From the NCBI RefSeq assembly GCF_054482595.1, contig NZ_CM137008.1: DNA of 64,000 nt, one strand, 5' to 3'. A model generated the notes under the pieces. The model was not told where the DNA came from. It was given only the letters and a program-made list of their open reading frames with translations, and ran no database searches. A program made the translations under genes and the position numbers. Positions 46,089-46,133 of the stretch are shown piece after piece; positions within the stretch are counted from its first letter, which is position 1; each line of letters opens with the position of its first letter.

Positions 46089-46133
46089 ATAACCGTGATC
46101 GATCGGTTATTATTAATCGATCGATCACGATTA
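46089..46133. promoter_or_regulatory. About 21-bp inverted repeat with four GATC sites upstream of the PTS-sulfatase operon (candidate operator or bidirectional terminator)
   Basis: ataaccgtgatcgatcggttat ... taatcgatcgatcacgattat: arms are reverse complements apart from 2 mismatches; lies between the rlmC 3' end and the PTS IIC start. Confidence 0.5.

Follow-up and report, generated by a model that had tools for sequence, protein, structure and literature searches.

Bidirectional intrinsic terminators consist of a stable stem-loop, found soon after a stop codon and bordered by an A-rich 5' flank and a U-rich 3' flank, in which both strands encode a hairpin with a U-rich tract. Compensatory changes keep their structure while the sequence drifts. 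Their stems usually comprise 5–14 bp and are G+C-rich, and the genes on either side are convergent. The inverted repeat described here, located between rlmC and a PTS-sulfatase operon, shares the layout and the mode of evolution of these terminators, but it differs from them by its longer and moderately G+C-rich stem (17–21 bp), by its interrupted U-tracts and by its co-directional flanking genes; termination is, in the present case, deduced from the architecture of the element. A related example is the hairpin which follows rlmC in Escherichia coli K-12 (GCCGCA-TGT-GCGGC). This hairpin occupies the same functional position and likewise has a better U-tract on the antisense than on the sense strand. 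However, it is a short G+C-rich hairpin of unrelated sequence, its distance from the stop codon is 3 nt instead of 48 nt, and it faces the convergent artJ gene and REP elements, whereas the repeat faces a co-directional operon.

Two other systems have been compared with this locus. In pap, agn43 and SeqA clusters, several GATC sites lie within tens of base pairs in non-coding DNA upstream of an operon, as is the case here. In contrast to pap and agn43, no recognised regulator site overlaps the GATC sites of the repeat, which is located ~105 bp upstream of the predicted transcription start and past a CRP-like site; in contrast to all three, its GATC sites are not conserved where the element is. 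The ulaG-ulaA region is controlled by CRP and by the DeoR-type repressor UlaR, which binds four operators as a tetramer (PMC3219644). Its likeness to the present locus resides in the neighbouring promoter module and not in the repeat, of which it has no counterpart. Unlike ulaG-ulaA, the island found in Escherichia and Salmonella is served by one promoter and lacks a divergent gene. On balance, we consider it probable, from sequence comparisons, that the repeat is a terminator or insulator hairpin with a bidirectional architecture.

Architecture of the Inverted Repeat

The window, that is, the whole 64-kb stretch of DNA analysed, carries on its minus strand, in this order, potFGHI, ybjO, rlmC, the repeat and the genes for PTS IIC, IIB and a sulfatase, with artJ convergent. 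The sulfatase is a cytoplasmic enzyme of the Cys-type, with a CMPAR motif and without signal peptide, and the IIC-IIB-sulfatase segment contains neither a regulator gene nor a IIA gene. Literature searches on ECs0940-0942 and on the corresponding EDL933 tags, guessed as Z1086-1089, returned nothing relevant, and those on STM0883-0886 and on rlmC, artJ and the sulfatase returned nothing on regulation or transcript ends. The features of the locus are as follows, the sense strand being that of rlmC and of the PTS genes.

46183–47310, minus strand: rlmC (from the annotation), the upstream co-directional gene, whose transcripts would reach the hairpin.
46135–46182, minus strand: spacer of 48 nt between the rlmC stop and the hairpin, hypervariable, with two alleles in E. 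coli and unalignable with Salmonella.
46135–46146, minus strand: A-rich 5' flank, CUCAAAAUAAUA on the sense strand and a T-rich tail, TATTATTTTGAG, on the plus strand; kept in Escherichia and Salmonella.
46114–46134, minus strand: 5' hairpin arm, reading ATAATCGTGATCGATCGATTA on the sense strand, with core stem 46118–46134.
46110–46113, minus strand: hairpin loop, variable among Escherichia and Salmonella, as are the pairs closest to it.
46089–46109, minus strand: 3' arm of the hairpin, TAACCGATCGATCACGGTTAT, with core stem 46089–46105.
46097–46126, no strand assigned: four GATC (Dam) sites in two mirrored GATCGATC octamers, absent in the S. enterica allele.
46070–46088, minus strand: A/U-rich 3' tail, AUAUUGCUCUAUUUUUGCA on the sense strand, leading into the CRP-like site.
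44560–45885, minus strand: PTS IIC, the leading gene of the IIC-IIB-sulfatase operon and a member of the UlaA/EIIC-GAT family (annotated as 44560–45903).

The two arms of 21 nt (46089–46109 and 46114–46134) are complementary at 19 of 21 positions (90%, two mismatches) and enclose a loop of 4 nt. The repeat lies 48 nt past the rlmC stop and ~200 bp ahead of the PTS IIC start. An inverted repeat of about 21 bp with two mismatches and four GATC sites had been reported between the 3' end of rlmC and the start of PTS IIC by the first-pass annotation; the location of the arms and of the GATC starts (46097, 46101, 46119 and 46123) confirmed its size and content, and the gene coordinates its position. 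Of the two tcgatcgatc blocks mentioned in that annotation, the second is present as described, while the first reads tgatcgatcg. Dinucleotide-shuffled sequence is expected to contain 0.005 repeats of this size per 64-kb window. In the real window, no other repeat combines arms of 16 nt or more with one mismatch or none, and this one is also the longest of its kind.

The repeat also forms the densest GATC cluster of the window, with four sites in 30 bp whose pairs are spaced by 22 bp and thus face roughly the same side of the helix. All four sites, however, derive from one GATCGATC octamer which is mirrored by the repeat and are not independent; the chance frequency of this octamer is ~1 per window. 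At least three GATC are found within 30 bp at three other sites of the window (8145, 35418 and 52707), and the cluster at 35418 contains one GATCGATC octamer.

Distribution in E. coli and in Other Genera

Of 5426 complete E. coli genomes, 566 carry the IIC-IIB-sulfatase segment, without exception at this site, and in each of these 566 the repeat occupies exactly one locus; no copy of the palindrome was found in E. coli genomes beyond the rlmC-IIC locus. In O157:H7 Sakai, the hairpin maps to about 1,024,982–1,025,027 of NC_002695.2. A scan for the same palindrome near regulator genes, which had been put forward as a check, yielded a single locus per genome with no regulator gene nearby. Three matches were obtained in a plasmid collection, none of them a true plasmid copy (two were very large E. 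coli records and one was weak and partial), and a pattern scan of metagenomes retrieved only the known E. coli locus and its variants, along with unrelated microsatellites of the (GATC)n type. A dispersed repeat of the REP/BIME or MITE kind was rejected on the basis of the single copy per genome. Among individual assemblies, the annotation of E. coli LP5-1 (L004) lists IIC as a pseudogene, owing to an internal stop, and in L133 (GCA_019431005.1) the region is broken into short ORFs, which indicates a frameshift-rich assembly.

The operon has been found in several enterobacterial genera, where the gene located upstream of it varies. In Silvania and Leclercia, an arylsulfotransferase gene lies divergently upstream; the promoter module, described below, is kept and no comparable hairpin was found. 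An Enterobacteriaceae MAG with the same divergent layout has only a weaker repeat of 16 nt, 81% complementary and far upstream. In Yokenella, a histidine kinase gene, co-directional with the operon, is followed by a hairpin of its own, unrelated and G+C-rich; this genus lacks the GATC repeat and keeps the promoter module. In these sequences, which represent few independent lineages, a hairpin is present if and only if a co-directional gene ends upstream of the operon.

Conservation of the Hairpin and Covariation of Its Arms

The GATC form of the hairpin follows rlmC in E. coli variants, in other Escherichia species and in S. enterica subsp. arizonae and diarizonae, with all four GATC in Escherichia and S. 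arizonae and three in S. diarizonae. At third codon positions of identical amino acids, E. coli and Salmonella are ~55% identical, in the operon genes and rlmC alike, and the segment is therefore as old as the split between the two genera. Over this distance, the stem core is identical at 30 of 32 positions between E. coli and S. arizonae (94%), the promoter module at 83%, the 5' UTR at 57% and the spacer after the rlmC stop at 36%. Since the stem core is conserved far above both synonymous positions and the spacer, these comparisons indicate that the hairpin is under purifying selection. Unlike the GATC hairpin, the one which follows the sulfatase gene has been replaced over the same evolutionary distance.

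S. enterica strains of the enterica type (L131, L134-136, L139-140) have a different hairpin, AAATACAATCAATTGA-N9-TCAATTGGTTGTATTT, at the same position and between the same A-rich and U-rich flanks, with zero GATC. The operon is carried by strain LT2, in which STM0884 has been annotated as ulaA (PMC3844500). When the hairpin alleles were aligned with MAFFT, which used the sequences alone, the enterica-type allele fell in register with the GATC form. In this alignment, both partners are altered in 7 of the 21 pairs, for the most part through double transitions, and none of the core pairs has been disrupted. Paired positions account for 92% of the alignment cells, and covariation reaches 0.292, compared to 0.147 in shuffled alignments (of which 0/500 reach the observed value) and to at most 0.09 in slid controls. 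Because the enterica-type allele combines seven compensatory changes with the loss of every GATC and of no core pair, this pattern argues that selection acts on pairing and not on Dam sites or on a protein-recognition sequence.

These results bear directly on the likeness, raised by the first-pass annotation, to methylation-sensitive sites of the pap and agn43 kind and to SeqA-binding clusters, according to which methylation of the four GATC would control the operon. The density of the sites, their 22-bp spacing on roughly one helix face and the retention of all four in Escherichia and S. arizonae would suit such an epigenetic element. We nevertheless regard this role as highly improbable: the S. 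enterica allele has lost all four sites and still pairs, S. diarizonae and the slippage variants described below have one fewer, the four sites amount to one mirrored octamer, and the element lies off the promoter. Transient SeqA binding is a property of any two closely spaced GATC, and would not be distinctive here. In the Escherichia/arizonae lineage, the GATC sites come with the sequence of the stem as a by-product, and they illustrate, as a caution, that GATC clusters within palindromes can be incidental.

Template switching between the arms of a quasi-palindrome can give rise to paired changes without selection. The repeat could thus be a functionless quasi-palindrome whose symmetry is maintained during replication, with the paired changes as the expected product. 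Mutational activity at the repeat is evident from the loss of a GATC unit in E. coli UTME-3, A3176 and KK05-19 (L038, L003 and L039, respectively), in which the 5' arm is shortened from GATCGATC to GATC. The deletion site is equivalent to positions 46119–46126 of the window, and the shortened element can still form a stem of 13 bp. As this loss occurred in two different sequence backgrounds, it is ascribed to recurrent slippage. A purely mutational origin is nonetheless very unlikely, considering that 30/32 stem positions are conserved, whereas identity falls to 55% at synonymous sites and to 36% in the spacer, and that each of three alleles retains a hairpin, the presence of which correlates with the genomic context.

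The sequence which separates rlmC from the hairpin evolves in a different manner. The two E. coli alleles of the spacer (46135–46182) are about half identical between flanks that are 94–100% identical, and both occur in other Escherichia; the three Salmonella and E. coli versions are mutually unalignable. The last codons of rlmC also differ, encoding ...VKQ* in K-12, ...VKI* in island strains and ...CRL* in S. arizonae. Between enterica-type strains and S. arizonae, the last rlmC codons, the spacer and the hairpin are ~50% identical inside flanks which are 93–100% identical, and this divergent segment has therefore probably been exchanged as a block. Collectively, the spacer and the end of rlmC point to repeated replacement or recombination beside the palindrome. 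In S. Weltevreden GCA_007155025.1 (L137), a predicted protein of 563 aa is a fusion between a PotF-like periplasmic binding domain and the C-terminal three quarters of IIC, with rimK and ybjN directly upstream, which suggests a deletion of potG-potI, ybjO, rlmC, the hairpin and the promoter.

A Putative ula-Type Promoter Module Downstream of the Repeat

All five genera share a conserved block of ~65 nt that begins 15 nt beyond the repeat, on the operon side. The sequence at 45995–46082 (minus strand) aligns without gaps to the K-12 ulaA promoter (L043, 296–381), with 34 invariant columns. The following elements have been located in this module.

46058–46073, minus strand: CRP-like site, TGCAA-N6-TCACA, of which the half-sites are kept and the spacer varies in the five genera and the K-12 ulaA promoter.
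46016–46044, minus strand: 29-nt motif common to both ula promoters, AATCTT-N4-TGA-N5-TTTGAT, found as a PWM match.
46012–46017, minus strand: probable -10 hexamer, TACAGT, aligned to TAGAGT of the ulaA region, itself chosen by sequence.

The 29-nt motif is a putative UlaR-type operator. A PWM derived solely from the five island genera gave 23 and 19 bits at two places of the K-12 ulaG-ulaA intergenic region, for a background maximum of 16 over 665,000 positions, while the repeat scored 4–8 bits, which is within the background range. Transcription would start near 46005, and the repeat would then be centred at about -105, upstream of the whole module.

The repeat itself might instead act as an operator or auxiliary DNA site, bound by an unknown regulator or serving as a distal UlaR looping site, which controls the PTS-sulfatase promoter. 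Escherichia and S. arizonae are more alike in the GATC form (94% identity) than in the promoter module (83%), which is in line with this proposal, and the outer end of one arm, GATTATTA, is similar to the right half of the ula-type motif, with a score of 4–11 bits. We nonetheless judge it unlikely. The repeat is absent from three genera which retain the operon and the promoter module, and in S. enterica it has been rewritten with its pairing kept; its PWM score is at background, it has one copy per genome with no regulator gene near, and its centre lies upstream of the CRP-like site. In addition, symmetry is kept between arms 25–45 bp apart and not inside one arm. No convincing match was seen when the repeat was inspected by eye against the consensuses of LacI/GalR, CRP, FNR, NagC/Mlc and GntR-type regulators and of H-NS nucleation sites. 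A palindromic operator of the operon is not supported, the GATC repeat being absent in Silvania, Leclercia, Yokenella and the Enterobacteriaceae MAG, all of which have the promoter module. The earlier suggestion of an operator, already qualified at the time by the unusual length of the repeat, thus gives way to the ulaA-like module downstream, which is the plausible operator region instead of the GATC palindrome.

This promoter may prove a more useful by-product than the repeat which led to it, as it provides a concrete regulon hypothesis: the operon would belong to the CRP/UlaR regulon, borrow UlaC as its IIA component and import a sulfated ascorbate-like compound, for example L-ascorbate-2-sulfate. 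If so, desulfation would feed the Ula pathway. L-ascorbate-2-sulfate is a mammalian metabolite; no paper linking it to a bacterial PTS was found in the literature. IIC is 40% identical to UlaA and IIB 28% identical to UlaB.

Folding and Terminator Features of the Hairpin

The sense-strand RNA of the repeat is predicted to fold into a hairpin of 17 contiguous pairs plus three more, at about -25 kcal/mol (z = -5.4). With both strands considered, the RNA reaches -24.7 to -29 kcal/mol and 0/200 shuffles fold as well; plus-strand RNA and single-stranded DNA of the repeat fold equally well, and the Salmonella versions range from -21.6 to -29.9 kcal/mol. Among the imperfect core pairs, three are wobble pairs on the sense strand and one on the antisense strand, a difference which is not significant for the choice of strand. 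Rfam searches gave no family at the gathering score for three Salmonella loci, and for the window the best hit was sub-threshold (19.6 bits, with a cut-off of 48).

Several features support a terminator. The A-rich 5' and U-rich 3' flanks correspond to the layout of bidirectional terminators, and in K-12, where the island is missing, rlmC is directly followed by a different hairpin. The position past the coding region, with 15 nt between the end of the hairpin and the CRP-like site of the next promoter, also fits an intrinsic terminator. Against a simple terminator stand the weak sense U-tract, a stem far longer than typical and the 94% cross-genus identity of the GATC form, which exceeds what pairing alone requires. 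The U-tracts are interrupted on both strands. On the sense strand, the tract is poor (UUAUAUAUUGCUCUAUUUUU, with the tail UUAUAUAUUG..UAUUUUU); on the plus strand, the stem is followed by AUUAUUAUUUUGAG, and a terminator consensus scan flagged the plus-strand tail AUUAUUAUUUU and not the sense strand. With our own implementation of a d'Aubenton-Carafa-type score, the best sense value was -16, compared to -10 for rrnB T1 and -18 for lambda tR2, a scale which is poorly calibrated, known terminators being negative as well, and of qualitative use only.

The weak U-tract, the long stem and the high identity of the GATC form leave room for RNA processing or for an added role at the DNA level. In the first case, cleavage by RNase III or a block to 3' exonucleases would separate or stabilise the rlmC and operon transcripts without ending transcription. 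The duplex of 17–21 bp, which corresponds to about two helical turns and exceeds usual terminator stems, the poor U-tract and the covariation of a conserved structure could all be explained in this manner. Nothing in the element is specific to RNase III, however, and the A-rich and U-rich flanks, kept along with the stem, fit termination better than a bare duplex, so that we consider processing without termination rather unlikely. In the second case, the GATCGATC core of Escherichia and S. arizonae/diarizonae, which is nearly invariant between genera whose synonymous sites are saturated, would have a further function at the level of DNA, such as that of a Dam/SeqA-sensitive site or of a protein-bound, cruciform-prone one. 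We find this additional role very doubtful; were it real, replication or methylation state would be tied to the insulation of a CRP/UlaR-type operon, and S. enterica would later have lost the DNA layer and retained the hairpin alone.

The bidirectional terminator or insulator named among the possibilities by the first-pass annotation is thus the reading which we favour, considering that the structure has been kept despite two-sided changes in 7 of its 21 pairs and that the element occurs only behind a co-directional gene. As such, a stem-loop of 17–21 pairs, directly upstream of the operon's own promoter, would act as a factor-independent terminator or insulator. Together with its flanks, it would stop or strongly reduce read-through from rlmC into the operon, stop antisense transcripts heading back into rlmC, and cap the 3' end of the rlmC mRNA, and the operon would then be expressed solely from the CRP/UlaR-type promoter. 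Termination itself, and the strand concerned, are what we infer from these features. A boundary hairpin of this type would allow a regulated accessory operon to occupy the site immediately behind a housekeeping gene. While the element is in itself ordinary, it offers a clean natural case in which compensatory change has maintained a long hairpin.

Other Features of the Operon

At the distal end of the operon, an 11-bp G+C-rich hairpin, GCCGGAGTGGG-cgaaca-CCCACTCCGGC, is found between the convergent stops of the sulfatase gene and artJ (positions 42685–42712 of the window), with a U-tract on neither strand. The sulfatase gene is followed in Salmonella by an unrelated REP-like hairpin and in Yokenella by a canonical terminator. 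At the proximal end, the IIC start given at 45903 in several RefSeq records (ATG, MEGVPTMFAKF..., 447 aa) encloses GGAGG, which corresponds to the conserved Shine-Dalgarno sequence, and the start at 45885 (ATG, MFAKF...) is used in all other genera and in the Sakai annotation (441 aa). Since the Shine-Dalgarno sequence falls inside the longer version and the other genera start at 45885, the annotated start at 45903 is probably wrong and 45885 more likely.
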